Assembly: GCF_041248615.1 (NCBI RefSeq)
Contig: NZ_CP158426.1
DNA from: Escherichia coli
GTDB lineage: Bacteria; Pseudomonadota; Gammaproteobacteria; Enterobacterales; Enterobacteriaceae
Direction: 5' to 3' (one strand)
DNA: 64,000 nt
Of this stretch, positions 10,500-41,681 are shown in pieces. Position numbers and translations under genes: made by a program. The first letter of the stretch is position 1. Each line of letters begins with the position of its first letter. Below the pieces are notes generated by a model. It was not told the DNA's origin. It did not search any database and saw nothing but the letters and a program-made list of their open reading frames with translations.

Positions 10500-10535
10500 G
10501 TTTTGCGTTTGTCATCATTCTCTAATATGGTTGAC

Positions 10536-17886: not shown

Positions 17887-20800
17887 TTATTTCCGTACCC
17901 GATGTCGGTGCAGCCACATCAGCTTATATGCCGCCGGGATAATAAACAGCGATAGCAAAGGCGCGGTGATCATGCCGCCAATCATCGGCGCGGCAATCCG
18001 GCTCATCACCTCTGAACCTGCTCCCGTTCCCCACAGAATCGGCAGCAGACCAGCGATAATCACCGCCACCGTCATCGCTTTCGGGCGCACGCGCAGGACC
18101 GCGCCGTGATACAACGCCTCATCCAGCTTCTGCTCGCTGAATGTTTGCGGATTATTCAACGACGGCTCGGCCTCTATGGCGTGACGTAAATACATCAGCA
18201 TCACCACGCCAAATTCGGCGGCAACCCCGGCGAGGGCAATAAAACCGGTGCCCGTCGCCACGGAAAGATGAAAGCCCATCCACCACAGCAACCAGATGCC
18301 GCCCACCAGCGCAAACGGTACGCTGCTGATAATCAGCAACGCTTCGCCCACCCGACGGAACGCCAGATATAACAGCACGAAGATGATCATCAGCGTCATC
18401 GGCACCATGAGTTTCAGCTTATGGTTGGCGCGTTCCAGTAGCTCGAACTGCCCGGAGAATGCCACGCTGGTGCCCGGTTTTAACTGTACTTTTTCAGCTA
18501 TCGCTTTTTGCAGATCGTGAACCACCGACACCATGTCACGATCGCGGGCATCGATATAAATCCAGCTCGTCGGGCGCGCATTCTCGGTTTTCAGCATCGA
18601 CGGTCCGGTAGAGACTTTAACGTCAGCCACGTCTGCCAGGGTGATTTGCTGCTTCATCGGCGTCAGAATCGGCAACTGGCGCAGCGCCTGCGGACTATCG
18701 CGCCAGCTTTGCGGATAACGCAGATTAATTGGATAACGGGCAATCCCTTCCACCGTTTCGCCAACCATCGCCCCGCCCACCGCAGATGTCACAAACAATT
18801 GCACATCCGCCACCGTCATACCGTAACGCGCGGCTTTTTCACGGTTAATCTCAACGTTGATATAGCGCCCACCTTCCAGACGCTCGGCAAGCGCAGAAGC
18901 TACGCCTGGCACCGTTCGCGCCACTTCTTCAATTTGCTCCGCCATCGCGTCGATATCCGCCAGCACAGTGCCGGAAACTTTAATGCCGATGGGGCTTTTA
19001 ATGCCGGTTGAGAGCATATCGATACGGTTACGAATTGGCGGCACCCACAGATTCGCCAGCCCCGGCAGACGCACGGCGTTATCCAGTTCCTCAATGATTT
19101 TGTCCATCGTCATGCCTGGCCGCCACTGATCCTGCGGCTTAAGCTGGATGGTCGTTTCTACCATCTCCAGCGGAGCAGAATCGGTGGCGGTTTCCGCTTT
19201 CCCGGTTTTGCCAAATACCCGCGCCACTTCAGGTACGCTCATAATCAGCTTGTCGGTTTTTTGCAGCATACTCGCCGCCTCTGCTGCGGAAATCCCCGGC
19301 AGCGTCGATGGCATATACAACAAGTCGCCTTCATTGATCTGCGGTAAAAATTCCCCGCCAACTTTATTGAGCGGCCAGAGAACCGTCAGCACCGAAAGCG
19401 CCGCCACCAGCAGCGTGGTTTTCGGCCAGTGCAGTACTTTCAGCAACAGCGGATGATAAACACGAATCAAAAAGCGATTGAGCGGGTTACTGCTTTCCGG
19501 CGGAATTTTGCCACGGATCCAGTAGCCCATCAGGATAGGGATCACTACGATCGCCAGCAGCGCCGCACCCGCCATCGCATACGTTTTGGTGAACGCCAGC
19601 GGGCCAAACAGACGCCCTTCCTGCCCTTCCAGGGTGAAGATCGGGATAAACGACAACGTGATAATCAGCAGACTGATAAACAGCGCCGGCCCCACTTCAA
19701 CAGACGCATCGGTAATCACCTGCCAGCGCGTTTTATTATCCAGCGTGGCGTCAGGATGCTGGTGCTGCCACTCTTCCAGCCGTTTATGCGCATTCTCGAT
19801 CATGACGATAGCGGCATCGACCATCGCCCCGACGGCAATCGCAATGCCGCCCAGCGACATAATATTGGCGTTCAGTCCCTGAAAGTGCATGACAATAAAA
19901 GCAATACACAACCCCAGCGGCAACGAAATAATCGCCACCAGCGCCGAGCGCACATGCCAGAGAAACAGCGCACAGACTACCGCCACCACAATAAACTCTT
20001 CCAGCAACTTGCCGCTGAGGTTGTCGATGGCGCGGTCAATGAGCTGGCTGCGATCGTATGTTGTAACTATCTCCACGCCTTCCGGCAGACTGCTTTTCAG
20101 CGTTTCCAGTTTGTCCTTCACGGCGGCGATCACTTCACGGGCGTTTTTGCCGGAGCGCAGGATCACCACTCCGCCCGCCACTTCGCCTTCGCCGTTCAGT
20201 TCGGCAATGCCCCGGCGCATCTCCGGGCCAATCTGGACCTTCGCAACATCACGCAGATAAACGGGCACGCCATTTTCACTGGCTTTTAAAACGATGTGAT
20301 TAAAGTCGTCGAGCGTTTGCAGATAGCCGCTGGCGCGCACCATATATTCCGCTTCCGCCAGTTCGATCGACGAACCGCCCGCTTCCTGGTTTGAAGCATC
20401 CAGCGCGCTTTTTACTTCGGCGAGACTGATGCCATATTGCGCCAGGCGCTGAGGATCGATAACCACCTGATACTCTTTCACCACACCGCCTACCGACGCC
20501 ACTTCCGCAACGTCAGGGATGGTTTTTAGCTCATATTTGAGAAACCAGTCCTGCAATGAGCGTAAATCGGCCAGATCGTGCTTACCGCTGCGATCCACCA
20601 GTGCATATTCATAGATCCAGCCAACACCCGTGGCATCTGGCCCCAGCTCGGCGCTGACTCCCGCAGGCAGCTTACCCTGTACCTGGTTGAGGTACTCCAG
20701 CACCCGCGAGCGCGCCCAGTATGGATCGGTGCCATCTTCGAAAATGACATACACATAAGAGTCGCCAAACTGCGAGAAACCGCGCACAATCTTCGCGCCA

Positions 20801-21030
20801 GGCACCGACAACATGGTGGTAGTTAGCGGATAAGTCACCTGATTTTCAACGAGTTGCGGTGCCTGACCGGGATAGCTGGTTTTAATAATCACCTGTACAT
20901 CAGAGAGATCCGGCAGTGCATCCACTGGCGTGTTAATGATGGTCCAGGTGCCCCAGATACTCAGAAACAACGCGCCCATCAGCACCAGAAAACGGTTCGC
21001 CACCGAGCGACGAATAATCCATTCAATCAT
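17887..21030 (-). CDS. cusA: Copper/silver efflux RND inner membrane transporter
   Basis: 1047 aa RND permease. Confidence 0.97.
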
Positions 21031-21041
21031 TGGCTATTCCC

Positions 21042-22265
21042 TCAATGCGCATGGGTAGCACTTTCAGAGCGCATCCGCTCCAGTGCGCCAGAAATATTGG
21101 CTTCAGAATCAATCAGGAACAGGCCGCTGGAAACCACCTTTTCACCTTCCGCCAGACCAGAGCGTAACGCGGTGACGCCTTGCGATGCCTGGAAAACGGC
21201 AACGCGTTTCGGTACAAAGCGTCCGTCGGCATCAACGGTAATCACCCGCTGTTCGTTGCCGGTATCAATCAGCGCTTGTGACGGAATGAGCAGCATCGGT
21301 TCGCTGGCGGTGTTGAGTTGCAACCAGGCGTTCATTCCCGGCTTTAGCGCCTCGTCGGTGTTGTCGACTTCCAGGCGCAGCTGCAGCGTGCGGGTTGCGG
21401 CATCCACGCCGGGTAGCAGCGTCCATTTGCGGATGGTGAGTGTTTTATCAGGTCGTGCCGGAACGGTGAGCGTAAACTGCGAGGCATCTTTCACCAGCCA
21501 GGCGATGGACTCCGGGATCGCGGCAGTGATCCACACCGGATCCATACCCTGAATTTTCGCGACCACGTTATCTTTGGCGATATTCATTCCCGCGCGCAGA
21601 TCAAACGCGGTGATCACGCCATCAATGGGCGCTTTGAGCGTAAAGCGAGTCTGTATTTTTTGCGTGGCGATCAGGCGGCGAATATCCGCCTCCGGCATTC
21701 CCGCCAGTCTCAGCCGCTCAAGAATGCCTTCAGTCTGGGTCGCCGTACCGCCGGTTTCACGCAGCAGTAAATACTCACTCTGCGCTTCCACCCAGTCAGG
21801 AATGGTCAGGTCGAGAAGCGGTGTGCCCTTTTGTACTTTATCGCCCACGGTAAGCGGATACACCTTGTCGATAAACCCGGCAGCGCGAGCCTGCACAATG
21901 GCATACTGATACTCGTTGTAACTGACATTCGCCGGGAAACTCTGGGCAAAAGTCAGCGGTCCGCGCGTGACGGTAGCCGTTTTCACCCCCAGATTCTGCG
22001 TCTGAGTCGGGTCAATGCGCACACCAGACGCAGAACTCTCTTCATCGGCATATTTCGGCACCAGATCCATATCCATAAACGGCGATTTACCTGGTTTATC
22101 GAACCGCGTATTGGGATACATCGGGTCGTACCAGAATAAGATTTTACGTTCTGCGGTCGACGTTTTTTCTGCGGGTGGTTCCGCCTTTGCAAACCAGGTA
22201 AAACCTGCCGCAGAAATAATACCGCCCGCGATCATGCTGCCGATAATAAGCGCGATTTTTTTCAT
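21042..22265 (-). CDS. cusB: Copper/silver efflux membrane fusion protein
   Basis: 407 aa, periplasmic adaptor. Confidence 0.95.
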   Translation of the reverse strand: MKKIALIIGSMIAGGIISAAGFTWFAKAEPPAEKTSTAERKILFWYDPMYPNTRFDKPGKSPFMDMDLVPKYADEESSASGVRIDPTQTQNLGVKTATVTRGPLTFAQSFPANVSYNEYQYAIVQARAAGFIDKVYPLTVGDKVQKGTPLLDLTIPDWVEAQSEYLLLRETGGTATQTEGILERLRLAGMPEADIRRLIATQKIQTRFTLKAPIDGVITAFDLRAGMNIAKDNVVAKIQGMDPVWITAAIPESIAWLVKDASQFTLTVPARPDKTLTIRKWTLLPGVDAATRTLQLRLEVDNTDEALKPGMNAWLQLNTASEPMLLIPSQALIDTGNEQRVITVDADGRFVPKRVAVFQASQGVTALRSGLAEGEKVVSSGLFLIDSEANISGALERMRSESATHAH

Positions 22266-22280
22266 CTCATTAAACCTGGG

Positions 22281-22613
22281 TTACTGGCTGACTTTAATAT
22301 CCTGTAATAAAGAAAGGTTGCCCTGCTGGACAAAATTAAACGCCACTTTGTCGCCAGTTTTAATTTCACTCATTTTCGTCTGCGGAGTGATGGTAAAGCG
22401 CATGGTCATCTCCGGCCAGTTCACGGCAGCAATCGGATCGTGATGGATGGTGATTTTTTTGCTTTCCAGATCAATACCCTTTACCACGCCAGTGGCGCTA
22501 ATAACCTGTGGTTTTGCTTCGCTCATGGTTTCATGATGATGTTCGTTAGCCTGGGCATTAAAGCCAATAACGGTAAACAGACTGAACATTGCGACTTGCA
22601 GTGCTTTTTTCAT
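22281..22613 (-). CDS. cusF: Periplasmic copper/silver metallochaperone
   Basis: 110 aa with signal peptide. Confidence 0.93.
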   Translation of the reverse strand: MKKALQVAMFSLFTVIGFNAQANEHHHETMSEAKPQVISATGVVKGIDLESKKITIHHDPIAAVNWPEMTMRFTITPQTKMSEIKTGDKVAFNFVQQGNLSLLQDIKVSQ

Positions 22614-22636
22614 TTATTCTCTCCTGGAGTTAAAAA

Positions 22637-24019
22637 TTATTGCTGCCAACCGCCCCCTAAGGCGGTATACAAAGAAATTTCGTTAACCTGACGGGCATAA
22701 TTCAGGTCGAGTAAAGTTTGTCGGGTTGCAAATAAAGAACGCTCGGCATCCAGCACTTCCAGATAACTTACCGCGCCGTGCTGATATAATGCCCGCGCCC
22801 GTTGCAAAGTAATTTGCAGCGACGCCAGATAACGCTGCTGGGCGCTGATTTGATCGTTCAGGCTTTGACGTAATGCCAGCGCATCTGCCACTTCTTTAAA
22901 GGCGTTCTGGATTTTCTGTTCATAATTCACTACCGACTGCTGCTGGCGAATTTCGGCGATATCCAGATTGGCCTGGTTGCGTCCGGCATTAAAAATGGGG
23001 ATCTCAATTTTAGGAATAAAATTCCACATCCCGCTGCTAGCGTTAAATAATGAAGACAGATCGCTGCTGGCGGTTGATATTCCGCTGGTCAGGCTGATAG
23101 ACGGGAAAAATGCCGCACGCGCAGCGCCAATATTGGCATTAGCCGCCATTAACGCGTGTTCAGCTTCCATAATATCCGGGCGCTGCAATAAGATTTGCGA
23201 CGACAATCCCGCCGGTAATTTAACGCTTTGCAGGCTGTCGCTGTTTACTGTCTGCGCTTGCGGCAGCTTGCCGTAGCTTCCCAATAACAGTTGCAATGCA
23301 TTATTCGCCTGCGCCAGTTCCCCCTGACGTTTAGCGATGTCGCTGCGGGTACTTTCAATCACCCCGCGAGCCTGTTCCAGCGCCAGAACATTGCTGCTAC
23401 CGGTCAACAGTTGTTTTTCGACAAACGCATATGACTGCTGATAATTACGCAGCGTTTCTTCGGCTATTTGCAATTGCGCATACGCCAGCTGCTGATTGAA
23501 ATAGCTTTGCGCGACATTAGAAACCAGCAGAATATGCACCGCGCGCTGGGCTTCCTCAGTGGCTAAATAATTTTGGCGCTCGGCTTCGCTCATGTTCTTT
23601 AAGCGACCGAAAAAATCGAGATCAAAGCTGGCGTTAAGGCCAGTCGAGAACTCCCGCATCGTGGCTGAATCGCCTTTAAGATTGCCGCTCCAGCTGCCGC
23701 TGCCCTCGCCATTGAGCTGTGGGTAGCGGTCGGCATCGGTCAGACGATATTGCGCCCGCGCTTCCTGCACTTTCAGCGTCGCCATGCGCAAATCCCGGTT
23801 ATTCACCAGCGCCTCGCTAATCAGCGTCTTCACCTGATTATCAACAAAAAAGGTGCGCCAGCCCGCGTTCTGGTAGTTATCTGCTGCGTTAACCAGGCCG
23901 TTCTGGTTGAGTGAGAACTGCTGCGGCACGGGCATTGCCGGGCGCTGATAAACCGGTGCTAGTGAACAACCGGTTAGCGCAAGGGCCACACAAAATGGCA
24001 GAAGTTTACAAGAAAACAT
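22637..24019 (-). CDS. cusC: Copper/silver efflux outer membrane factor lipoprotein
   Basis: 460 aa, lipobox LTGCS, TolC-like. Confidence 0.95.
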   Translation of the reverse strand: MFSCKLLPFCVALALTGCSLAPVYQRPAMPVPQQFSLNQNGLVNAADNYQNAGWRTFFVDNQVKTLISEALVNNRDLRMATLKVQEARAQYRLTDADRYPQLNGEGSGSWSGNLKGDSATMREFSTGLNASFDLDFFGRLKNMSEAERQNYLATEEAQRAVHILLVSNVAQSYFNQQLAYAQLQIAEETLRNYQQSYAFVEKQLLTGSSNVLALEQARGVIESTRSDIAKRQGELAQANNALQLLLGSYGKLPQAQTVNSDSLQSVKLPAGLSSQILLQRPDIMEAEHALMAANANIGAARAAFFPSISLTSGISTASSDLSSLFNASSGMWNFIPKIEIPIFNAGRNQANLDIAEIRQQQSVVNYEQKIQNAFKEVADALALRQSLNDQISAQQRYLASLQITLQRARALYQHGAVSYLEVLDAERSLFATRQTLLDLNYARQVNEISLYTALGGGWQQ

Positions 24020-24088
24020 AGGCTCATAATTTCTGGTGATTTTATGCCGCCAACTTTACTCGCCAGGCTCTGATTTTCCGGTGACAGG

Positions 24089-24110
24089 AAAATGACAAAA
24101 TTGTCATTTT
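24089..24110. promoter_or_regulatory. CusR box palindrome AAAATGACAAAATTGTCATTTT in the divergent cusC/cusR promoter
   Basis: Perfect inverted repeat matching the known CusR/copper-box consensus. Confidence 0.7.
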
Positions 24111-24175
24111 GCCAATAAGCGATTGCCATCTGATCCCGCTACTCTAGAATTGCCCGGGCAACATGCGGAGGAAAT

Positions 24176-24859
24176 ATGAAACTGTTGATTGTCGAAGATG
24201 AAAAGAAAACCGGAGAATACTTGACCAAAGGGTTAACCGAAGCCGGTTTTGTGGTCGATTTGGCCGACAACGGGCTGAATGGCTACCATCTGGCGATGAC
24301 CGGTGATTATGATCTGATAATCCTCGATATTATGCTGCCGGACGTGAACGGCTGGGATATCGTGCGCATGTTGCGTTCCGCCAATAAGGGGATGCCGATT
24401 CTGTTGCTTACCGCGCTTGGCACCATTGAACATCGCGTCAAGGGGCTGGAGTTGGGGGCGGATGACTATCTGGTGAAGCCGTTCGCTTTTGCTGAACTGC
24501 TGGCGCGGGTGCGCACTCTACTGCGGCGCGGGGCGGCGGTGATTATCGAAAGTCAGTTTCAGGTTGCCGATCTGATGGTCGATCTCGTCAGCCGCAAAGT
24601 CACCCGCAGCGGCACGCGCATCACTCTGACCAGTAAAGAATTTACTTTGCTGGAGTTTTTCCTCCGCCATCAGGGTGAAGTGCTGCCCCGCTCGCTTATC
24701 GCCTCGCAGGTGTGGGACATGAATTTCGACAGCGATACCAACGCCATTGATGTGGCGGTGAAGCGGCTGCGCGGCAAAATCGACAACGACTTTGAGCCAA
24801 AGCTGATTCAGACCGTGCGCGGCGTGGGTTACATGCTAGAGGTGCCGGATGGTCAGTAA
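24176..24859 (+). CDS. cusR: Copper-responsive OmpR-family response regulator
   Basis: 227 aa, receiver domain plus winged-helix. Confidence 0.97.
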
Positions 24860-26297
24860 GCCATTTCAGCGCCCGTTTTCGCTGGCAACCCGCCTGACCT
24901 TTTTTATCAGCCTCGCCACCATCGCGGCGTTTTTCGCCTTTGCATGGATCATGATCCACTCGGTAAAAGTGCATTTTGCCGAGCAGGATATTAATGATTT
25001 AAAAGAGATTAGCGCCACCCTTGAACGGGTACTTAATCACCCTGACGAAACGCAAGCCCGACGCTTAATGACGCTGGAAGATATCGTCAGTGGTTATTCC
25101 AATGTATTGATCTCCCTGGCAGATAGCCACGGTAAAACGGTGTATCACTCCCCCGGTGCGCCGGATATCCGCGAGTTTACGCGTGACGCCATACCCGATA
25201 AAGACGCGCGGGGCGGCGAGGTGTATCTCCTTTCCGGCCCGACGATGATGATGCCAGGCCACGGTCACGGGCATATGGAACACAGCAACTGGCGGATGAT
25301 TAGCTTGCCGGTTGGCCCACTGGTGGACGGCAAACCGATTTATACGCTCTACATTGCGCTTTCGATCGATTTTCATCTTCATTACATAAATGATTTGATG
25401 AATAAACTTGTAATGACCGCATCGATCATTAGCATCCTGATCGTCTTTATCGTGCTGTTGGCGGTACATAAAGGTCACGCGCCGATCCGCAGCGTCAGCC
25501 GTCAAATCCAGAATATCACCTCGAAAGATCTCGACGTTCGCCTTGACCCGCAGACCGTGCCCATTGAGCTGGAACAGCTGGTACTGTCGTTCAACCATAT
25601 GATCGAGCGTATTGAGGATGTCTTTACCCGCCAGTCCAATTTCTCAGCGGATATCGCTCACGAAATTCGCACGCCGATTACCAATCTCATCACGCAAACG
25701 GAAATCGCCCTCAGCCAGTCGCGCAGCCAGAAGGAGCTGGAAGATGTGCTCTACTCTAATCTCGAAGAGCTGACGCGAATGGCGAAAATGGTCAGCGATA
25801 TGCTGTTTCTCGCTCAGGCCGATAACAACCAGCTAATCCCCGAAAAGAAAATGCTCAACCTGGCGGATGAAGTCGGCAAAGTGTTCGATTTTTTCGAGGC
25901 GTTAGCGGAAGATCGCGGCGTGGAGTTGCGGTTTGTTGGCGACAAATGTCAGGTTGCGGGCGATCCGCTGATGCTGCGTCGGGCGTTAAGCAACCTGCTT
26001 TCTAATGCCCTGCGTTATACGCCACCCAGTGAGGCTATTGTAGTGCGCTGCCAGACGGTCGATCACCAGGTGCAAGTTTCCGTCGAAAACCCCGGTACGC
26101 CCATTGCGCCCGAGCACTTACCGCGATTGTTTGACCGTTTCTACCGCGTTGACCCCTCCCGCCAGCGAAAAGGCGAAGGTAGCGGTATTGGGCTGGCGAT
26201 AGTGAAATCGATTGTTGTCGCGCATAAAGGCACGGTTGCAGTAACGTCAGATGCTCGGGGGACAAGGTTTGTGATTATGCTGCCGGAGAGAGAGTGA
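24849..26297 (+). CDS. cusS: Copper/silver sensor histidine kinase
   Basis: 482 aa, two TM helices, H-box [12 protein letters not shown], ATPase domain; overlaps cusR stop. Confidence 0.95.
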
Positions 26298-27033
26298 TTA
26301 TTAAGTTCAAATTCAGGGCGTGGTGCATCACCTCCTGGTATTGTTGATCAACAAATTAGAGAAAAACTTATTAAACATATGAAATATCGAAGGCTTTTAT
26401 TTTTCAAAGTTTCACGAGATGTTTGTATATGAAACTTAGTTAAATCTGTGTTTCTTCCAATTGTAGATCACAATGCCCTTTCTAAATTTTCATCGTTATA
26501 AACAAGCCATCTATCATATAAAGCAATGAATAATTTAATCGCGATTAATCATCATTAATTGTTATATTATTCACTCAATCTATTTATCAAGTGAATTTGA
26601 TAAATTCCTAATTTAAAATATCCACTATTGAGCCAGTATTTAACAACGTTAAGATGTGCAATGTGCAGATCATGTTATCAGGGTGGAGCGGTAGCATATA
26701 TTTCTTATGCAATCATTCATTTTAATAATGTTAATTGGATTATTTATTGCTGTGAATAAAAATATATTATGAATATTGGTTTAACTTTGCGTTTTTGTTA
26801 CTCGTTGTGATATGCGTACCTGTCCTGAATAACGCCAAGAAACAAGAGGTTGAGCTTGTGATTATTTTTTTGACTGAACAGACACCCGTTTCTGTAAAGT
26901 AATATTTAAACAAAATTCTCACATAACCATAGCATTTTCTGTTCCTTCCCTAATAACGTCTGAAGTCGTCCCGCTTATCACATTATCCGCAGTTGTACGG
27001 TACGGATCATTATTCATTTTACTGGAGGTTGCT
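26298..27033. promoter_or_regulatory. AT-rich, ORF-free leader (about 735 bp) upstream of vgrG; left edge of the Rhs island
   Basis: Markedly AT-rich, no ORF of 60 aa or more in any frame. Confidence 0.3.
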
Positions 27034-28935
27034 ATGTCAACCGGATTACGTTTCACACTGGAAGTGGACGGCCTGCCGCCGGATGCTTTTGCGGTGGTTT
27101 CCTTTCATCTGAACCAGTCACTCTCTTCGCTCTTTTCCCTCGATCTCTCCCTGGTCAGCCAGCAGTTTCTCTCCCTTGAATTTGCGCAGGTGCTGGACAA
27201 AATGGCCTACCTGACGGTATGGCAGGGCGATGACGTACAGCGCCGGGTGAAAGGCGTGGTGACCTGGTTTGAACTCGGGGAGAACGACAAAAACCAGATG
27301 CTGTACAGCATGAAGGTGCACCCGCCGCTGTGGCGTGCCGGTCTGCGCCAGAACTTCCGTATCTTCCAGAACGAGGACATCAAAAGCATCCTCGGCACGA
27401 TGTTGCAGGAAAACGGGGTGACCGAATGGAGTCCGCTGTTCAGCGAGCCGCATCCTTCCCGTGAGTTTTGTGTCCAGTACGGTGAGACTGATTACGATTT
27501 CCTGTGCCGGATGGCGGCGGAGGAAGGCATCTTCTTTTATGAGGAGCATGCTTACAAAAGTACCGACCAGAGCCTGGTGCTGTGCGACACAGTCCGCCAT
27601 CTGCCCGAATCTTTTGAAATCCCATGGAACCCGAACACCCGTACCGAGGTGAGCACCCTCTGCATCAGCCAGTTCCGCTACAGCGCACAAATCCGCCCTT
27701 CTTCCGTGGTGACCAAAGACTACACCTTTAAACGCCCCGGCTGGGCCGGACGTTTTGAACAGGAAGGCCAGCACCAGGACTACCAGCGCACGCAGTATGA
27801 AGTGTATGACTACCCCGGACGTTTCAAGGGTGCCCACGGGCAGAACTTTGCCCGCTGGCAGATGGACGGCTGGCGAAACAATGCAGAAACCGCGCGGGGA
27901 ATGAGTCGCTCGCCGGAGATATGGCCGGGACGACGAATTGTGCTGACGGGGCATCCGCAGGCGAACCTGAACCGGGAATGGCAGGTGGTGGCAAGTGAAC
28001 TGCACGGCGAACAGCCACAGGCGGTGCCAGGACGGCAGGGAGCGGGGACGGCGCTGGAGAACCATTTTGCGGTGATCCCGGCAGACAGAACATGGCGACC
28101 ACAGCCGTTGCTGAAACCGCTGGTCGACGGCCCGCAGAGCGCTGTCGTGACAGGACCGGCAGGCGAGGAAATCTTCTGCGACGAACATGGTCGCGTGCGG
28201 GTGAAGTTCAACTGGGACCGCTATAACCCGTCAAACCAGGACAGTTCGTGCTGGATCCGTGTGGCACAGGCGTGGGCAGGCACCGGTTTTGGCCACCTGG
28301 CGATACCGCGTGTGGGTCAGGAGGTGATTGTAGACTTCCTCAACGGCGATCCGGACCAGCCGATCATTATGGGGCGCACCTACCACCAGGAAAACCGCAC
28401 CCCCGGCAGCCTGCCGGGAACAAAGACGCAGATGACCATCCGCTCCAAAACGTACATGGGCAGCGGATTTAATGAGCTGAAGTTTGATGATGCGACAGGG
28501 AGAGAACAGGTCTACATCCACGCGCAGAAGAACATGGATACCGAAGTGCTCAACGACCGTACCACCACCGTAAAACACGATCACCACGAAACCGTAAAAA
28601 ATGACCAGACGGTCACGATCCAGGAAGGTAACCGCCTTCTTACGGTGGAAAAAGGCCACAAGATCACCGGAGTACTGAAAGGGTCTTTATCTGAGGATGT
28701 CTTTCAGGACAGAGGCACGATTGCCGGTTCGGTGCATGTTGACGCTGTAAACAATGGTGGCGAAGGCGACGGTATACAGGCTTATACGGCGATTAAGGAA
28801 ATTTTGCTGGCCGTGGAGGAAAGCAAAATTGCGCTGACGCCGGATGGCATTCAGCTACAGGTCGGGGAATCGACGGTAATCAGGCTGTCGAAGGATGGCA
28901 TCACCATCGTGGGCGGTTCTGTTTTCATCAACTGA
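27034..28935 (+). CDS. vgrG: VgrG spike protein (type VI secretion; Rhs-associated Vgr)
   Basis: 633 aa, gp27/gp5-like VgrG sequence directly upstream of Eag-like and PAAR-Rhs genes. Confidence 0.9.
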   Translation: MSTGLRFTLEVDGLPPDAFAVVSFHLNQSLSSLFSLDLSLVSQQFLSLEFAQVLDKMAYLTVWQGDDVQRRVKGVVTWFELGENDKNQMLYSMKVHPPLWRAGLRQNFRIFQNEDIKSILGTMLQENGVTEWSPLFSEPHPSREFCVQYGETDYDFLCRMAAEEGIFFYEEHAYKSTDQSLVLCDTVRHLPESFEIPWNPNTRTEVSTLCISQFRYSAQIRPSSVVTKDYTFKRPGWAGRFEQEGQHQDYQRTQYEVYDYPGRFKGAHGQNFARWQMDGWRNNAETARGMSRSPEIWPGRRIVLTGHPQANLNREWQVVASELHGEQPQAVPGRQGAGTALENHFAVIPADRTWRPQPLLKPLVDGPQSAVVTGPAGEEIFCDEHGRVRVKFNWDRYNPSNQDSSCWIRVAQAWAGTGFGHLAIPRVGQEVIVDFLNGDPDQPIIMGRTYHQENRTPGSLPGTKTQMTIRSKTYMGSGFNELKFDDATGREQVYIHAQKNMDTEVLNDRTTTVKHDHHETVKNDQTVTIQEGNRLLTVEKGHKITGVLKGSLSEDVFQDRGTIAGSVHVDAVNNGGEGDGIQAYTAIKEILLAVEESKIALTPDGIQLQVGESTVIRLSKDGITIVGGSVFIN

Positions 28936-28962
28936 TTCACTCAGATTATCAGGGAGTATTTT

Positions 28963-29424
28963 ATGCAGTTCACTTTTAATGAAGGCCACATTCAACTGCC
29001 GTCTCAATGGCAGGATCAGTCAATGCAGGTCCTGGTGTCCACAGATAACAGTGGCATCAACCTGGTCATTACCCGCGAAGCCGTTCCACAGGGAACCCTG
29101 ACACCAGAGCTGTACCAGGAAACGCTGGCGCTGTACCAGGGCAAACTTGATGGGTACACCGAACATGCCTGCCGGGAAATCACTCTGGCAGAGGCCCCGG
29201 CCTGGCTGCTGGATTATTCCTGGAACGGTCCGGAAGATGAGGGGAATCAGGGGCGGATTAGCCAGATAGCCGTATTCCAGCGGCGTGGAGATACGCTGCT
29301 GACCTTCACTTTCAGCACCTCCTTATCCCTGAAGAACAGTCAAAAGACGATGCTGCTGGAGGTGATAAAGAGCTTCACCCCGTTGCCACCGGAGAATGAC
29401 ATCCAAAAGGACCAGCCGCGCTGA
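28963..29424 (+). CDS. DUF1795 (Eag-family) effector-associated chaperone
   Basis: 153 aa small protein immediately upstream of a prePAAR-Rhs effector; position and size typical of Eag chaperones. Confidence 0.7.
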   Translation: MQFTFNEGHIQLPSQWQDQSMQVLVSTDNSGINLVITREAVPQGTLTPELYQETLALYQGKLDGYTEHACREITLAEAPAWLLDYSWNGPEDEGNQGRISQIAVFQRRGDTLLTFTFSTSLSLKNSQKTMLLEVIKSFTPLPPENDIQKDQPR

Positions 29425-29443
29425 CATAAACGAGGGATAACAC

Positions 29444-32400
29444 ATGAGTGAAGGACCAGGCGGGCCACAGGGAGCGACCGCAGGCGGTACGCTGGCAATG
29501 CGAATGCTGTCACAGCAGGCGATGGTCGCCAGCCAGATGAAACGGGCAGCCAACGACAAAGCCATTGCACAGATGCTGGCATCAAAAAAGTCCGGCCCCC
29601 CCGCCGCCAGGCTGGGCGATGAAATTCAGCACAAGAGTTTTTTGGGGGCGCTGGCAGGGGCCGTGCTGGGGGCGATAGTGACCATCGCAGAAGGTTGCCT
29701 GATTATGGCCGCCTGTGCCACCGGCCCTTATGCGCTGGTTCTGGTGCCTGCGCTGATGTATGCCAGCTATAAGGCGAGTGATTATGTGGAGGAGAAACAG
29801 AACCAGCTTGAATCATGGATAAACAGCTTTTGTGACACGGACGGCGCCATCAATACCGGTTCTGAAAATGTAAACATTAACGGAAAGCCCGCTGCCAGGG
29901 CCGCCGTCACCCTTCCCCCTCCTCCCCCACCTGGAGCAATACCTGAAATCCCACAGGGGGAACCCTCATGGGGTGATATTGCCACTGACCTGCTTGAATC
30001 GGCAGCGGAAAAAGCAGTACCACTGGCGAAGGCCTGGGGGAACGCTGTTATCACCCTGACGGACAGCAATGCCGGTTTTATGGATCGCGTCAGCGCCGGC
30101 GCATCGCTTCTGTTTCCCGCCGGTCCGGTATTAATGGAGTTTGCCACCATGGTGGGCGGGCGTGGCGAAATCAAAAAAGACGTGGATTTCCCGGAAGCCG
30201 GTGAGGACACGGCGCTCTGCGACAAGGAGAACAAACCGCCGAGGATAGCCCAGGGCAGCAGCAACGTCTTTATCAACAATCAGCCTGCTGCACGCAAGGG
30301 GGACAAACTGGAGTGCAGTGCGGCAATCGTGGAAGGTTCGCCGGACGTCTTTATTGGGGGTGAGCAGGTCACCTATCTGGATATCCAGCCGGAGTTCCCG
30401 CCGTGGCAGAGAATGATCCTGGGGGGAATAACGATAGCCAGCTATCTTCTGCCGCCAGCGGGACTGCTGGGAAAACTGAAGAATCTGGCGAGACTCGGCA
30501 AACTGGGAAACCTGCTGGGGAAAAGCGGGAAGCTGCTGGGGGCAAAGCTCGGCGCGTTGCTGGGGAAAACAGGTAAGTCGTTAAAAAGTATTGCCAATAA
30601 AGTCATCAGATGGGTAACAGATCCTGTCGATCCGGTAACCGGCGCATACTGCGACGAACGTACCGACTTTACGCTGGGCCAGACACTCCCCCTCTCCTTC
30701 ACCCGTTTCCACAGTTCTGTACTGCCACTGCATGGCCTGACGGGCGTGGGCTGGAGCGACTCCTGGAGCGAATACGCCTGGGTGCGTGAACAGGGAAACC
30801 GGGTGGATATCATCAGCCAGGGAACCACGCTGAGATTTGCCTTCGACGGTGACAGTGATACGGCGGTTAACCCGTATCACGCCCAGTACATTCTGCGCCG
30901 CCGCGATGATTACCTGGAGCTGTTCGACAGGGATGCACTGAGCAGCCGCTTCTTTTATGACGCCTTTCCGGGAATGCGTCTGCGCCACCCGGTGACTGAC
31001 GATACCAGCGATGACCGTCTGGCACACAGCCCCGCAGACCGGATGTACATGCTGGGCGGGATGAGCGACACCGCCAGCAACCGCATCACGTTTGAGCGCG
31101 ACAGCCAGTACCGGATCACAGGTGTCAGTCACACTGACGGGATCCGGCTTAAACTGACGTACCACGCCAGCGGCTACCTGAAAGCCATTCACCGCACGGA
31201 TAACGGCATACAGACGCTGGCGACCTACGAACAGGATGCGCGGGGGCGGCTGACAGAAGCGGATGCGCGGCTGGACTACCACCTGTTTTATGAGTACGAC
31301 GCTGCGGACCGGATCATCCGCTGGTCCGATAACGACCAGACGTGGAGCCGTTTCACCTACGATGAACAGGGCCGGTGCGTGAATGTCACCGGGGCGGAGG
31401 GCTATTACAACGCCACGCTGGACTATGGTGACGGCTGCACCACCGTGACGGACGGCAAGGGCATTCACCGTTATTACTATGATCCTGACGGCAATATTCT
31501 GCGGGAAGCAGCGCCGGACGGCAGCACCACCATGTATGAATGGGATGAATTCCATCACCTGCTGGCCCGTCACTCCCCTGCCGGGCGGGTGGAGAAATTT
31601 GAATACAACGCCGCACACGGTCAGTTAAGCCGTTACACGGCGGCAGACGGCGCGGAGTGGCAGTACCGCTATGATGAGCGCGGCCTGCTCAGCAACATCA
31701 CCGACCCTGCCGGGCAGACGTGGACACAGCAGTGTGATGAACGCGGCCTGCCGGTAAGTCTGGTGTCGCCACAGGGCGAAGAGACCCGGCTGGCATACAC
31801 CGCTCAGGGGCTGCTGTCGGGAATATTCCGCCAGGATGAACGGCGTCTGGGCATAGAGTACGACCACCACAACCGGCCGGAAACACTCACCGACGTGATG
31901 GGCCGCGAACACCACACCGAATACAGTGGTCACGACCTGCCGGTGAAGATGCGCGGCCCCGGCGGTCAGTCAGTGCGCTTACAGTGGCAGCAGCACCATA
32001 AACTGAGTGGCCTTGAGCGCACTGGCACCGGCGCGGAAGGATTCCGCTACGACCGCCACGGCAACCTGCTGGCCTGGACGGACGGTAACGGTGTTGTCTG
32101 GACAATGGAATACGGCCCGTTTGATTTGCCGGTGGCGCGAACGGACGGTGAAGGCCACCGCTGGCAGTACCGCTACGATAAAGACACGCTGCAACTGACA
32201 GAAGTCATTAACCCGCAGGGTGAGTCATATCTTTATGTTCTGGATAACTGCGGCCGGGTGACGGAAGAGCATGACTGGGGCGGCGTGGTCTGGCGTTACC
32301 GCTATGACGCCGATGGCCTGTGTACCGCCAGGGTCAACGGCCTGGAGGAAACCATCCTCTACAGCCGGGACGCCGCAGGCCGCCTGGCAGAAGTCATCAC

Positions 32401-34303
32401 GCCGGAAGGCAAAACGCAGTATGCCTATGACAAATCCGGCAGGCTGACGGGTATCTTCAGCCCGGACGGCACATCACAGCGCACCGGCTATGACGAACGC
32501 GGGCGGGTGAATGTCACCACTCAGGGCCGACGGGCCATTGAATACCACTACCCCGACGAACACACCGTCATCCGCTGTATCCTGCCACCGGAAGATGAAC
32601 GCGACAGACACCCCGGTGAATCCCTGCTGAAAACCACGTACCGCTACAACGCCGCCGGAGAACTGACGGAGGTCATTCTGCCGGGGGATGAGACGCTGAC
32701 GTTCAGCCGTGATGAGGCAGGACGTGAAGTGCTCCGGCACAGTAACCGGGGTTTTGCCTGTGAACAGGGCTGGAATGCAGCCGGTCAGCCTGTCAGTCAG
32801 CGCGCCGGACTTTTCCCGGCAGAAGCCACATGGGGCGGGCTGCTCCCCTCACGGGTACGGGAGTACCGTTACGACAGCGCGGGTAATGTGTCAGGCGTCA
32901 CCAGCCGGGAAGATTACGGACGGGAAACACGGCGGGAATACCGGCTGGACCGGAACGGCCAGGTCACGGCGGTGACAGCCTCAGGCACCGGGCTGGGCTA
33001 TGGCGAAGGCGATGAGTCCTATGGCTATGACAGCTGCGGCTACCTGAAGGCGCAGTCTGCGGGCTGGCACCGGATAAGTGAAGAGACTGACCAGTATGCC
33101 GGAGGCCACCGGCTGAAACAGGCCGGAAACACGCAGTATGACTATGACGCCGCAGGCCGGATGGTCAGCCGCACCAGACACCGTGACGGCTATCGCCCGG
33201 AAACAGAGCGGTTCCGGTGGGACAGCCGTGACCAGCTGACCGGGTATTGCAGCGCACAGGGTGAGCAGTGGGAATACCGCCACGACGCCAGCGGCAGACG
33301 AACAGAGAAACGCTGCGACCGGAAGAAAATCCGCATCACGTACCTGTGGGACGGCGACAGTATTGCGGAAATCCGGGAATACCGCGATGATAAACTGTAC
33401 AGCGTACGGCACCTGGTGTTTAACGGCTTTGAGCTGATAAGCCAGCAGTTCAGCCGGGTACGGCAGGCGCATCCGTCGGTGGCCCCGCAGTGGGTGACAC
33501 GGACGAATCATGCGGTGAGCGACCTGACGGGCCGTCCGCTGATGCTCTTTAACAGTGAAGGTAAAACCGTCTGGCGACCGGGACAGACCAGCCTGTGGGG
33601 GCTGGCACTCAGCCTGCCCGCGGACACCGGCTACCCGGACCCGCGCGGGGAGCTGGACGCGGAAGCCGCCCCCGGCCTGCTGTATGCGGGACAGTGGCAG
33701 GATGCGGAATCGGGGCTGTGCTATAACCGGTTCCGGTACTACGAGCCGGAAACCGGGATGTACCTGGTGAGTGATCCGCTGGGGTTGCAGGGAGGGGAAC
33801 AGACTTACCGGTATGTGCCTAATCCGTGTGGGTATGTTGATCCGCTGGGGCTGGCAAAAACTTCTGTTCCCGTATCAATAGTAGAACCAAAAAAAATCAC
33901 TGGTAACTTTAAAACAATTCGAGAAAAATTAAGGCTTGCCAGGAATGGTGATGTTTCTGCACAAGCCGAAATTGCATACGCAAAATATATGCGTAGTTTG
34001 GGAAAGGATGTGCATTTCAATACACCTCCGAATCGCTCAGTATCAATGGCAGATTTTACAATTGATGGAATCCAGGTTGATACAAAATTATTGAGTGGTA
34101 TAGGCGGAAATGCTGCAAAAAATGTTAACAAGGGAGTTGGCCAGGTGGGAGATAATGGTATCGTCCTGGTAATTAGAAATTCTAATTCCAAAAATACACT
34201 TGAGGAATTTCATGAATTCTTTGGAAACTTCAAACCTAATAATTCAACAGTTCGAGTTGAAGTGATTGATCAATCCGTTTTAGAACCTTTTTGGAGATTT
34301 TAA
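29444..34303 (+). CDS. rhs: prePAAR/PAAR-Rhs polymorphic toxin (full length) with variable C-terminal toxin domain CT1
   Basis: 1619 aa; prePAAR motif AARLGDEIQH (29603-29632), two TM helices, PAAR-like region, many YD repeats, demarcation PxxxxDPxGL (PCGYVDPLGL), then AT-rich 149-aa CT. Confidence 0.95.
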   Translation: MSEGPGGPQGATAGGTLAMRMLSQQAMVASQMKRAANDKAIAQMLASKKSGPPAARLGDEIQHKSFLGALAGAVLGAIVTIAEGCLIMAACATGPYALVLVPALMYASYKASDYVEEKQNQLESWINSFCDTDGAINTGSENVNINGKPAARAAVTLPPPPPPGAIPEIPQGEPSWGDIATDLLESAAEKAVPLAKAWGNAVITLTDSNAGFMDRVSAGASLLFPAGPVLMEFATMVGGRGEIKKDVDFPEAGEDTALCDKENKPPRIAQGSSNVFINNQPAARKGDKLECSAAIVEGSPDVFIGGEQVTYLDIQPEFPPWQRMILGGITIASYLLPPAGLLGKLKNLARLGKLGNLLGKSGKLLGAKLGALLGKTGKSLKSIANKVIRWVTDPVDPVTGAYCDERTDFTLGQTLPLSFTRFHSSVLPLHGLTGVGWSDSWSEYAWVREQGNRVDIISQGTTLRFAFDGDSDTAVNPYHAQYILRRRDDYLELFDRDALSSRFFYDAFPGMRLRHPVTDDTSDDRLAHSPADRMYMLGGMSDTASNRITFERDSQYRITGVSHTDGIRLKLTYHASGYLKAIHRTDNGIQTLATYEQDARGRLTEADARLDYHLFYEYDAADRIIRWSDNDQTWSRFTYDEQGRCVNVTGAEGYYNATLDYGDGCTTVTDGKGIHRYYYDPDGNILREAAPDGSTTMYEWDEFHHLLARHSPAGRVEKFEYNAAHGQLSRYTAADGAEWQYRYDERGLLSNITDPAGQTWTQQCDERGLPVSLVSPQGEETRLAYTAQGLLSGIFRQDERRLGIEYDHHNRPETLTDVMGREHHTEYSGHDLPVKMRGPGGQSVRLQWQQHHKLSGLERTGTGAEGFRYDRHGNLLAWTDGNGVVWTMEYGPFDLPVARTDGEGHRWQYRYDKDTLQLTEVINPQGESYLYVLDNCGRVTEEHDWGGVVWRYRYDADGLCTARVNGLEETILYSRDAAGRLAEVITPEGKTQYAYDKSGRLTGIFSPDGTSQRTGYDERGRVNVTTQGRRAIEYHYPDEHTVIRCILPPEDERDRHPGESLLKTTYRYNAAGELTEVILPGDETLTFSRDEAGREVLRHSNRGFACEQGWNAAGQPVSQRAGLFPAEATWGGLLPSRVREYRYDSAGNVSGVTSREDYGRETRREYRLDRNGQVTAVTASGTGLGYGEGDESYGYDSCGYLKAQSAGWHRISEETDQYAGGHRLKQAGNTQYDYDAAGRMVSRTRHRDGYRPETERFRWDSRDQLTGYCSAQGEQWEYRHDASGRRTEKRCDRKKIRITYLWDGDSIAEIREYRDDKLYSVRHLVFNGFELISQQFSRVRQAHPSVAPQWVTRTNHAVSDLTGRPLMLFNSEGKTVWRPGQTSLWGLALSLPADTGYPDPRGELDAEAAPGLLYAGQWQDAESGLCYNRFRYYEPETGMYLVSDPLGLQGGEQTYRYVPNPCGYVDPLGLAKTSVPVSIVEPKKITGNFKTIREKLRLARNGDVSAQAEIAYAKYMRSLGKDVHFNTPPNRSVSMADFTIDGIQVDTKLLSGIGGNAAKNVNKGVGQVGDNGIVLVIRNSNSKNTLEEFHEFFGNFKPNNSTVRVEVIDQSVLEPFWRF

Positions 34304-34307
34304 AAAT

Positions 34308-34784
34308 ATGATCACCAAATCAAGTATACTCATAGAGTATAAAGATAAAAGTAAACTAACCGAAAGTATTTATAAGTTTGTAAATGCTCTAGATATTGAC
34401 TTTTCGATATTAAAATATGACTACTTTGATGTAAATGAGTATAAAAAAAATATTACTTATGACACATCTTTTATTGACAAAGATGCAGAATATATTGAAT
34501 TATTAGCGAAGATTGATTTTTCTTATGAAGTTGATTTCGGCACATCAACAACATCGATTGAAAGCAAGTATCTTCCATCTCTAACTGATTTCATCGCTCA
34601 ATCACTATCACAACAATTAAATTGTAACATAATAACCAGCTTTAAACCATTAAGTGGAGATGAGTTTTGCCCAATAACATATTTTTCAAAAGGTAAAGAA
34701 GTTATCAATTTTACGACATTTAATTCAAATTGTTGGGATGGGGTATACTGGGTAAAAAAAAGGAGGCAAACAAATATCCGCTAA
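34308..34784 (+). CDS. Putative cognate immunity protein for Rhs CT1
   Basis: 158 aa, AT-rich ORF 5 nt after the rhs stop, in the usual immunity position. Confidence 0.6.
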   Translation: MITKSSILIEYKDKSKLTESIYKFVNALDIDFSILKYDYFDVNEYKKNITYDTSFIDKDAEYIELLAKIDFSYEVDFGTSTTSIESKYLPSLTDFIAQSLSQQLNCNIITSFKPLSGDEFCPITYFSKGKEVINFTTFNSNCWDGVYWVKKRRQTNIR

Positions 34785-34902
34785 CGTAGTTTTTCAATAG
34801 CTACACCATGTCACGTAACATGATGCCTGGATATTAACAGAAAGACAGAAGTGGACTCAGCGGTGAGATGAACGCAGCCTGAGTCTGAAGTACGACCTGC
34901 CG

Positions 34903-37233
34903 GTGAAGATGCGCGGCCCCGGCGGTCAGTCAGTGCGGTTGCAGTGGCAGCAGCACCATAAACTGAGTGGCCTTGAGCGCACTGGCACCGGCGCGGAAGG
35001 GTTCAGCTATGACCGCCACGGCAACCTGCTGGCCTGGACGGACGGCAATGGTGTTGTCTGGACAATGGAGTACGGCCCGTTCGATTTGCCGGTGGCGCGA
35101 ACGGACGGTGAAGGCCACCGCTGGCAGTACCGCTATGATAAAGACACGCTGCAACTGACAGAAGTCATTAACCCGCAGGGTGAGTCATATCTTTATGTTC
35201 TGGATAACTGCGGCCGGGTGACGGAAGAGCATGACTGGGGCGGCGTGGTCTGGCGTTACCGCTATGACGCCGATGGCCTGTGTACCGCCAGGGTCAACGG
35301 CCTGGAGGAAACCATCCTCTACAGCCGGGACGACGCAGGCCGCCTGGCAGAAGTCATCACGCCGGAAGGCAAAACGCAGTATGCGTATGACAAATCCGGC
35401 AGGCTGACGGGTATCTTCAGCCCGGACGGCACATCACAGCGCACCGGCTATGACGAACGCGGGCGGGTGAATGTCACCACTCAGGGCCGACGGGCCATTG
35501 AATACCACTACCCCGATGAACACACCGTCATCCGCTGTATCCTGCCACCGGAAGATGAACGCGACAGACACCCCGGTGAATCCCTGCTGAAAACCACGTA
35601 CCGCTACAACGCAGCCGGAGAACTGGCAGAGGTCATCCTGCCGGAGGATGAGACGCTGACGTTCAGCCGTGATGAGGCAGGACGTGAAGTGCTCCGGCAC
35701 AGTAACCGGGGTTTTGCCTGTGAGCAGGGCTGGAATGCAGCCGGTCAGCTTACCAGCCAGCGCGCCGGACTTTTCCCGGCAGAAGCCACATGGGGCGGGC
35801 TGCTCCCCTCACGGGTACGGGAGTACCGTTACGACAGCGCGGGTAATGTGTCAGGCGTCACCAGCCGGGAAGATTACGGACGGGAAACACGGCGGGAATA
35901 CCGGCTGGACCGGAACGGCCAGGTCACGGCGGTGACAGCCTCAGGCACCGGGCTGGGCTATGGCGAAGGCGATGAGTCCTATGGCTATGACAGCTGCGGC
36001 TACCTGAAGGCGCAGTCTGCGGGCTGGCACCGGATAAGTGAAGAGACTGACCAGTATGCCGGAGGCCACCGGCTGAAACAGGCCGGAAACACGCAGTATG
36101 ACTATGACGCCGCAGGCCGGATGGTCAGCCGCACCAGACACCGTGACGGCTATCGCCCGGAAACAGAGCGGTTCCGGTGGGACAGCCGTGACCAGCTGAC
36201 CGGGTATTGCAGCGCACAGGGTGAGCAGTGGGAATACCGCCACGACGCCAGCGGCAGACGAACAGAGAAACGCTGCGACCGGAAGAAAATCCGCATCACG
36301 TACCTGTGGGACGGCGACAGTATTGCGGAAATCCGGGAATACCGCGATGATAAACTGTACAGCGTACGGCACCTGGTGTTTAACGGCTTTGAGCTGATAA
36401 GCCAGCAGTTCAGCCGGGTACGGCAGGCGCATCCGTCGGTGGCCCCGCAGTGGGTGACACGGACGAATCATGCGGTGAGCGACCTGACGGGCCGTCCGCT
36501 GATGCTCTTTAACAGTGAAGGTAAAACCGTCTGGCGACCGGGACAGACCAGCCTGTGGGGGCTGGCACTCAGCCTGCCCGCGGACACCGGCTACCCGGAC
36601 CCGCGCGGGGAACTGGACGCGGAAGCCGACCCCGGCCTGCTGTATGCAGGACAGTGGCAGGATGCGGAATCCGGGCTGTGCTATAACCGGTTCCGGTATT
36701 ACGAGCCGGAAACAGGGATGTACCTGGTGAGTGATCCGCTGGGGTTGCTGGGGGGTGAGCAGACTTACCGGTATGTGCCGAATCCGTGTGGGTATGTTGA
36801 TCCTTTGGGATTAGCAACATGTCCCATAATCAGACAACGGGTGCTGGCTAACCTTGAAGCCAGTCGGGCAGCAAGGGCTGCATCTAATTTTGGTAAGAAA
36901 AATATCTATGATTTTATCAAGGCAACTCAATCTGCTATCCCTGGCACCTCTATCCCAAAATCTTTTGAGATTATAACTGCTAATGGTACTTTCTGGGTAC
37001 ACCCAAATGCTACAAAACATATGGCTGAATATTTGACTCGGAACGGTCTCTCACATTCAACTTCTGTAGAGAGCCAAATAATGTTAACAAGTTTTCACGA
37101 AGCTGTAAGTTTGGCTAGTGCTCAAGGTATAAAGTATGAAGAAATGATGAATGTTGGCGGCTGGGAACTAGTATTTAGTCAAGCTAAATCTGACTCGGCT
37201 TTATCAGTTATTAAACATGCTCTTTATAAATGA
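34903..37233 (+). CDS. rhs: Orphan 5'-truncated rhs fragment (core repeat plus distinct C-terminal toxin CT2)
   Basis: 776-aa ORF with GTG start; 34892-36813 nearly identical to main rhs 31932-33853; PxxxxDPxGL followed by unrelated 139-aa CT. Confidence 0.85.
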   Translation: MKMRGPGGQSVRLQWQQHHKLSGLERTGTGAEGFSYDRHGNLLAWTDGNGVVWTMEYGPFDLPVARTDGEGHRWQYRYDKDTLQLTEVINPQGESYLYVLDNCGRVTEEHDWGGVVWRYRYDADGLCTARVNGLEETILYSRDDAGRLAEVITPEGKTQYAYDKSGRLTGIFSPDGTSQRTGYDERGRVNVTTQGRRAIEYHYPDEHTVIRCILPPEDERDRHPGESLLKTTYRYNAAGELAEVILPEDETLTFSRDEAGREVLRHSNRGFACEQGWNAAGQLTSQRAGLFPAEATWGGLLPSRVREYRYDSAGNVSGVTSREDYGRETRREYRLDRNGQVTAVTASGTGLGYGEGDESYGYDSCGYLKAQSAGWHRISEETDQYAGGHRLKQAGNTQYDYDAAGRMVSRTRHRDGYRPETERFRWDSRDQLTGYCSAQGEQWEYRHDASGRRTEKRCDRKKIRITYLWDGDSIAEIREYRDDKLYSVRHLVFNGFELISQQFSRVRQAHPSVAPQWVTRTNHAVSDLTGRPLMLFNSEGKTVWRPGQTSLWGLALSLPADTGYPDPRGELDAEADPGLLYAGQWQDAESGLCYNRFRYYEPETGMYLVSDPLGLLGGEQTYRYVPNPCGYVDPLGLATCPIIRQRVLANLEASRAARAASNFGKKNIYDFIKATQSAIPGTSIPKSFEIITANGTFWVHPNATKHMAEYLTRNGLSHSTSVESQIMLTSFHEAVSLASAQGIKYEEMMNVGGWELVFSQAKSDSALSVIKHALYK

Positions 37234-41111: not shown

Positions 41112-41681
41112 GTGAAACTCAAACCGATTGGTGACTTTTTAAACAAAAATGGGTTTATAAAAAATGGTAACAATGATTTTTATAAAGTTCATGATAAGTT
41201 TGTAAATTGTATAAATTTTCAAAAAAAGAGTACAGGTGATATTTTTTTTATAAACACAGGTGTTCATCCTGTGTTCGAAAATTTTTGCAATGAACCACCG
41301 AAAAAAGAAATAGATTGTTACATCCGTAACCGTGTGTGTGATGGACTAAGTATATCTTTGCTGCATTCTTTTGAAGGTAGTGAGTTTGTTATCAGTGAGA
41401 TAAAAAACAAAGCGTTTTGTTTTTTTGAATACTTTGATTCATTGAATAAAATATTCGATGCTATTCGTGTTGTAGATATTGAAGAGAGAAATATTTGCGA
41501 TGAGCTAAGTGGTGTAAGCAGCGTAAGATTAGCTTTGATGTGTATGAACTACCAGTATGAGAAAAAAAAATTTAGCCTTGTTTCTGATTTTGCGAACTAT
41601 GGTCTTGCTATATCTAGAGGCCCGGTACCGAAAAAAGCATTGGATTTGCCCCTATATTTCCAGACACCTGTTATCACTTAA
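41112..41681 (+). CDS. Putative immunity protein for CT3, 3' end disrupted by IS2
   Basis: 189-aa ORF; last 13 codons lie inside IS2; the original frame resumes after the IS2 target duplication. Confidence 0.55.

Follow-up and report, generated by a model that had tools for sequence, protein, structure and literature searches.

The stretch of Escherichia coli DNA analysed here (64 kb, referred to below as the window) carries the two operons of the cus copper/silver system, cusCFBA on the minus strand and cusRS on the plus strand. All six cus proteins scored above the curated cut-offs of NCBIfam, by which the genes were named, and RefSeq gives these names both to an identical genome and to K-12.

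17887-21030, minus strand: cusA, 1047 aa, NCBIfam TIGR00914 above cut-off, 1041/1047 residues identical to K-12
21042-22265, minus strand: cusB, 407 aa, NCBIfam NF007303 above cut-off, 403/407 residues identical to K-12
22281-22613, minus strand: cusF, 110 aa, NCBIfam NF007348 above cut-off, 109/110 residues identical to K-12
22637-24019, minus strand: cusC, 460 aa, first gene of cusCFBA, NF007347, 899.9 bits against a cut-off of 598
24176-24859, plus strand: cusR, 227 aa, response regulator, NF007346, 507.9 bits against a cut-off of 420
24849-26297, plus strand: cusS, 482 aa, sensor kinase, NF007345, 985.2 bits, above cut-off

The start codons of cusC (ATG at 24019, minus strand) and cusR (ATG at 24176, plus strand) enclose a divergent spacer of 156 bp, which upholds the placement of a regulatory site between the two operons as proposed in a first-pass annotation of this DNA. 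The four pump genes cusC, cusF, cusB and cusA are open and each is at least 98% identical to K-12, CusC sharing 450 of 457 residues and carrying three additional C-terminal ones (WQQ). The cusC-cusF spacer (22614-22636) measures 23 bp here versus 157 bp in K-12; the annotations of NZ_OW967178.1 and Klebsiella show this layout too. CusR is identical to its K-12 counterpart over all 227 residues, D51 included. CusS is full length, shares 468 of 480 residues with K-12, has two extra residues at its C-terminus and keeps H271 as well as H42, F43, M133, M135, H145 and H176, the latter six of which we take to be metal-site residues. Its 12 differences from K-12 are Q94H, Q121R, N152S, I188V, V193I, T393P, G394S, T396A, L407Q, I411S, T477M and A480E, none of them at a residue that we know to be catalytic or metal-binding. 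The importance of CusS H271 and CusR D51 has been stated previously (PMC12589874).

Beyond cusS the window differs from K-12, where nfrB follows directly. Here, positions 27034-36000 hold genes for VgrG (633 aa), a DcrB-related protein (153 aa) and a PAAR/RHS toxin (1619 aa, 29444-34303). NZ_LT599825.1 matches the segment 26298-36000 at 100% identity, and 1964 of 5426 E. coli genomes cover at least 80% of it; the annotation of NZ_OW967178.1 shows the RHS gene in broken fragments. The 736-bp gap between cusS and vgrG (26298-27033) contains no open reading frame of at least 60 aa, gave no match in Rfam and has a G+C content of 31.5% versus 50.8% for the window, and it may represent the junction of a T6SS/RHS island.

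The following elements were located within the cusC/cusR spacer.

24053-24058, minus strand: candidate cusC -10 hexamer TAAAGT, placed by its fixed distance from the CusR box across relatives
24068-24072, plus strand: conserved CTCTG block, which reads CAGAG on the cusC strand and lies in the interval from the candidate cusC -10 hexamer to the third half-site
24080-24097, minus strand: Pho-box-like 18-mer TGTCATTTTCCTGTCACC, spanning the CusR-box arm nearer to cusC plus the third half-site
24082-24086, plus strand: third half-site TGACA, repeating the left-arm TGACA (24093-24097) in direct orientation at a distance of 11 bp towards cusC
24088, plus strand: sole spacer difference from K-12, G here and A in K-12, outside the CusR box and at position 10 of the Pho-box-like 18-mer
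24089-24110: CusR box (copper box), with left arm AAAATGACAA (24089-24098), centre AA (24099-24100) and right arm TTGTCATTTT (24101-24110)
24123-24150, plus strand: predicted sigma-70 promoter of cusRS, with -35 TTGCCA (24123-24128), a 16-nt spacer and -10 TAGAAT (24145-24150), scoring 10/12 in the consensus scan

The 22-mer at 24089-24110 reads AAAATGACAAAATTGTCATTTT on the plus strand, exactly as quoted earlier, and is separated from cusC by 69 nt and from cusR by 65 nt. It occurs once in the 64-kb window and gave zero matches across 100 dinucleotide shuffles of the window. It had been described as a perfect 22-bp palindrome, a wording that has to be corrected: its reverse complement differs at two positions, leaving 20 of the 22 self-complementary. 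As the central pair A24099/A24100 is non-complementary and the next ten pairs outward are all complementary, the element is a 10-2-10 inverted repeat, the outer end of its symmetry being set by G24088/G24111.

Inverted repeats whose arms reach 10 bp or more and whose spacer does not exceed 4 bp number three in the window, against a mean of 0.38 in 100 simulated first-order Markov sequences. At least one such repeat was present in 28 of the 100 simulations, so that one of them somewhere in 64 kb could well arise by chance. What goes beyond chance is the exact match to the 20 specified bases of a published operator consensus in the intergenic region where it is expected. The other two repeats of this class, AAAAAACAAAGCGTTTTGTTTTTT and CCGGATGCGAAAACTCGCATCCGG, lie at 41402-41425 and 60571-60594. 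The search for further CusR boxes in the window found none: the core TGACAANNTTGTCA has no second exact copy, and matches to the 12-base core with two mismatches (three found, 3.07 expected) were at chance level.

The published E. coli CusR box consensus is AAAATGACAAnnTTGTCATTTT, and the K-12 box is credited to Munson 2000 and to Yamamoto and Ishihama 2005, as quoted in the same source (PMC11195947). All 20 specified positions of the consensus are matched by AAAATGACAAAATTGTCATTTT, the two unspecified ones being AA, in agreement with the earlier assignment of the 22-mer to the known copper box. The K-12 locus has the same 22 bases, the same flanking genes in the same orientation, a 156-bp spacer and a 100% identical CusR; it differs at one base adjoining the box, G24088 here versus A, and G is the commoner base in complete E. 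coli genomes. We therefore have very little doubt that the element is the already known CusR operator of the E. coli chromosome.

Binding and expression data are available for K-12, whose 22-mer is identical, while here the sequence alone was compared. Genomic SELEX yielded a single CusR peak, within the cusC/cusR spacer (PMC8249747), and ChIP-chip at 2 mM CuSO4 likewise gave one CusR peak in the same spacer (bioRxiv 10.1101/2020.08.17.251918). The accepted model has phosphorylated CusR bind the box and induce both operons (PMC10920338), and in Reg-Seq the cusC promoter was expressed upon copper addition (PMC12132413). The biosensor and systems literature that we searched for promoter architecture did not describe the CusR binding site. 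By the mechanism published for the identical K-12 sequence, periplasmic Cu(I) or Ag(I) would in this strain activate the kinase CusS, which would phosphorylate CusR at D51; a CusR dimer would then occupy both half-sites of the inverted repeat, ATGACA-N4-TGTCAT flanked by A/T-rich sequence, to activate transcription both ways, of cusCFBA on the minus strand and of cusRS on the plus strand, the latter as positive autoregulation.

The operator would moreover be a shared one. For the paralogue HprR (YedW), the main SELEX peak likewise falls between cusRS and cusCFBA, and its recognition sequence is given as that of CusR, although HprR responds to H2O2 and not to copper and its reported affinity differs (PMC8249747); hprRS is absent from the 64-kb window. 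In addition, the cusC-proximal arm together with 24082-24086 would form the Pho box that PhoB occupies in K-12. The overlap of HprR and PhoB with the CusR site is already published. The first-pass annotation had missed both, as well as the non-palindromic centre and the third half-site, which lies outside the interval it had marked.

The region is well conserved within the species. The 401 bp around the site are 100% identical to NZ_OW967178.1 and NZ_LT599825.1 and are present in 5335 of 5426 complete E. coli genomes, and the exact box with the 8 nt downstream of it was found in 5147 of the 5426. Since the 61 bp around the box are matched at 100% identity in 3334 of 5334 E. coli records, the G24088 form is the common one in E. 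coli. Comparison with K-12 MG1655 showed the spacer to be identical except at 24088. With this one base outside the box, an unchanged CusR (227/227), a full-length CusS retaining its key residues and open pump genes, copper/silver regulation appears intact at the sequence level, as had been proposed.

In the spacer alignment of E. coli, Klebsiella and the Salmonella sil-like plasmid, whose columns have a mean identity of about 69%, no other block is as well conserved as the box. The Salmonella sil-like plasmid has the box TAATGACAAAGCTATCATTTT, and Klebsiella, Citrobacter and Pantoea carry a C at an inner arm position that also varies in one E. coli strain, N96 (NZ_CM169999.1). The natural box variant of N96, AAAATGACAATACTGTCATTTT, is changed at one central base and at the innermost base of the right arm; the accession of its CusR protein differs from the common one. 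With the innermost arm pair thus variable in these three genera and in N96, symmetric constraint is limited to the core AAAATGACA-N4-TGTCATTTT, a 9-4-9 arrangement, which agrees with the 6-4-6 description of the homologous AgrR box (PMC7380067). Among the matches listed in our scan of genome contigs for the core pattern, AATGACA-N4-TGTCATTTT also recurs on three or four contigs of single Firmicutes MAGs, often in fully symmetric form (Lachnospiraceae MAG RUI229, loci L033-L036; Clostridia MAG SRR14411283_bin.2, loci L026-L029; loci L113-L115). This exceeds chance for one genome and could reflect a repeated element or the operator of another regulator.

Regarding the promoters, the TTGC of the predicted cusRS -35 hexamer and the -10 hexamer (TAGAAT/TAAAAT) are conserved in Klebsiella and in the Salmonella sil-like plasmid. 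On the other strand, E. coli, Klebsiella, IncHI2 sil and Citrobacter werkmanii all have the candidate cusC -10 hexamer TAAAGT at one and the same distance from the box, with TACAGT in its place in Pantoea. A good -35 hexamer sought 17 bp upstream of it was not found, which is the expectation for an activator-dependent promoter. If transcription starts about 7 nt downstream of the predicted -10 hexamers, at about 24046 for cusC and about 24157 for cusR, the centre of the box (24099.5) would lie at about -53.5 from the predicted cusC start and about -57.5 from the predicted cusR start. The block CTCTG stands in the same register in all seven enterobacterial cus/sil spacers compared and is absent from the Acinetobacter, MAG and Billgrantia loci. 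A sigma-54 promoter for cusC was considered and rejected, its spacing being a misfit by eye and Klebsiella having no TGGC.

The half-site TGACA at 24082-24086 may serve PhoB, CusR or both and admits two readings, of which the first concerns PhoB. According to this reading, the cusC-proximal arm and 24080-24088 form a true Pho box through which phosphate starvation controls cusCFBA, the proposal of Fitzgerald et al. 2023 (PMC10294691), and CusR uses the 22-mer only. The K-12 version of the 18-mer, TGTCATTTTTCTGTCACC, is the motif call of the PhoB ChIP-seq peak for cusR/cusC (PMC10294691 Table 1), which is centred at 595521, a position that falls inside the CusR box, whose core TGACAANNTTGTCA occupies K-12 595513-595526. 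The published Pho box upstream of cusC and ours share the same 18-bp direct repeat, TGTCA-N6-TGTCA, directed towards cusC and overlapping the cusC-proximal arm, and differ by one substitution, C in the window instead of T at position 10. The site is reported to be conserved in a set of gammaproteobacteria, and cusC RNA was about 4-fold lower in a phoB deletion (50 versus 208 in wild type), but the ChIP score is low (3 versus 38 for pstS; PMC10294691).

We built a PhoB PWM from the other 58 published ChIP-seq sites (median of bound sites 15.0 bits, minimum 6.1), with which the window 18-mer scored 14.2 bits, close to that median, and the K-12 version 15.8 bits. The match at 24097..24080 also has the 18-bp direct-repeat form and is the best in the whole 64-kb window, the next-best being 10510-10527 (plus strand, 13.4 bits) and 40851-40868 (minus strand, 13.1 bits). 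Because G24088 lies outside the CusR box and inside the 18-mer, the sole spacer difference from K-12 touches the PhoB site and not the CusR box; this common E. coli allele weakens the match by 1.6 bits, which speaks against phosphate control, as may the position of the site relative to the predicted promoter. A canonical Pho box replaces the -35 hexamer and lies about 10 bp upstream of the -10 hexamer. The 18-mer of the window ends 21 nt upstream of the candidate TAAAGT of the predicted promoter, about one helical turn farther away than in canonical pho promoters. Furthermore, mobile sil plasmids retain the half-site, as do distant cop loci where the Pho box scores poorly. Taken together, we give the PhoB reading nearly, but not quite, as much credence as doubt.

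The second reading assigns the half-site to the copper regulators themselves. In this case the operator of the CusR family would be in three parts, the inverted repeat binding a dimer and 24082-24086 binding a further CusR protomer or an alternative tandem dimer. The half-site lies one helical turn towards cusC, with its centre at about -38 of the predicted cusC promoter, and would give the symmetric box a direction in favour of the structural operon, PhoB binding then being a side effect of the shared TGTCA. We compared ten divergent cus/sil/cop loci (E. coli, Klebsiella cus, the Salmonella sil-like plasmid, IncHI2 sil, two Citrobacter, Pantoea, Acinetobacter cop, a Proteobacteria MAG and Billgrantia antri), which share the arrangement TGAC-N7-TGACA-N4-TGTCA/TATCA/TGTAA. 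TGAC was present at the -11 register, an exact 11-bp offset from the left arm, in 10/10 on the side of the structural genes and in 0/10 at the mirror position on the regulator side, and this includes the Acinetobacter, Proteobacteria MAG and Billgrantia antri loci, where the regulators share only 59-65% identity with CusR. The Shimwellia box is found 3' of cusS and 5' of structural genes in the same orientation, and there too the additional half-site faces the structural genes, so that all 11 cus/sil/cop loci examined carry it on the side of the structural operon. As background we used the 114 core-box matches listed without a regulator gene within 1.5 kb, among which TGAC stood at this register on 5 of 228 sides, one of the five being the Shimwellia cus locus itself.

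Retention of TGAC in distant loci where the Pho-box PWM score drops (2.4 bits in Billgrantia, 9.4 bits in Acinetobacter) would likewise favour a three-part operator. The silC/silR spacer of IncHI2 and related plasmids, GGTGACAGGATAATGACAATGTTGTCATTTT, has the same architecture, keeps the third half-site, TAAAGT and CTCTG in register and goes with a SilR about 87% identical to CusR; it differs in its outer A-tract (ATAA versus AAAA here) and in being plasmid-borne and horizontally mobile. The presence of the half-site on such mobile plasmids and the precedent of AgrR speak for a role intrinsic to the copper regulators. Two further boxes of heavy-metal regulators of the OmpR family, that of AgrR in Cupriavidus metallidurans (PMC7380067) and the palindrome ATTCATnnATGTAAT of CusR/CopR in Pseudomonas paraeruginosa (PMC11195947), are likewise inverted repeats (6-4-6) in divergent spacers, from which their regulators activate in both directions, although their half-site sequences differ from those of the E. 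coli box.

On the other side, the published CusR consensus ends at the 22-mer, the enterobacterial loci share ancestry and are thus non-independent observations, and the non-alignable loci in support number only three. The core-box scan of genome contigs returned at least 120 loci, most of them chance matches in unrelated phyla; among the matches listed, five have an adjacent CusR-like regulator, in addition to Shimwellia with its other gene order, and with so few regulator-linked loci the cross-species sample for the third half-site is small. The cop spacers retrieved from Ralstonia and Cupriavidus, whose regulators are 69-71% identical to CusR, contain no E. coli-type box and were unusable for this comparison. 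A degenerate fourth repeat at indices 14-18 of the cusC strand (AATCA/AAACA) was rejected as too weak a match. In the literature searched, we found no statement on a third half-site for cus. We regard a three-part operator as possible, on the doubtful side, while the conserved, direction-giving third half-site as such is a small refinement of the known CusR site.

We give practically no credence to the inverted repeat being a chance palindrome or a structural element (hairpin, terminator or cruciform) instead of a protein-binding site: single-stranded, it could fold into a 9-bp stem with a 4-nt loop (-7.7 kcal/mol, z = -3.8), and repeats of such arm length do arise in simulated windows as given above, but it matches an experimentally defined operator exactly, its stem is A/T-rich without a T-tract, the terminator scan of 23950-24250 was negative and no Rfam family matched, its position upstream of both predicted promoters makes it probably untranscribed, and conservation tracks the letters of the half-sites and not pairing, which both TATCA of Salmonella sil and TGTAA of Acinetobacter break. 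An intrinsic terminator or RNA hairpin was accordingly rejected, a G+C-rich stem followed by a T-run being absent and the published binding data contradicting it.

Returning to the CusR operator, the strain carries the standard chromosomal module for copper/silver sensing and efflux with its standard operator, which amounts to an annotation check and is not new; the added value lies in the corrected description as a 10-2-10 inverted repeat with a conserved 9-4-9 core. According to published work, the same few bases serve three regulators of the OmpR family, CusR, HprR and PhoB. It is conceivable, if unlikely as a whole, that the operator of CusR, SilR and CopR is an asymmetric unit of three half-sites, TGAC(A)-N6-TGACA-N4-TGTCA, facing the structural operon, that the membership of cusC in the PhoB regulon is a by-product and not selected phosphate control, and that G or A at 24088 tunes PhoB cross-talk without touching CusR binding. 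If true, such a unit would account for a symmetric dimer site acting differently on the efflux or oxidase promoter and on the regulator's own promoter, and the third half-site would refine the description of the CusR site in regulon databases.
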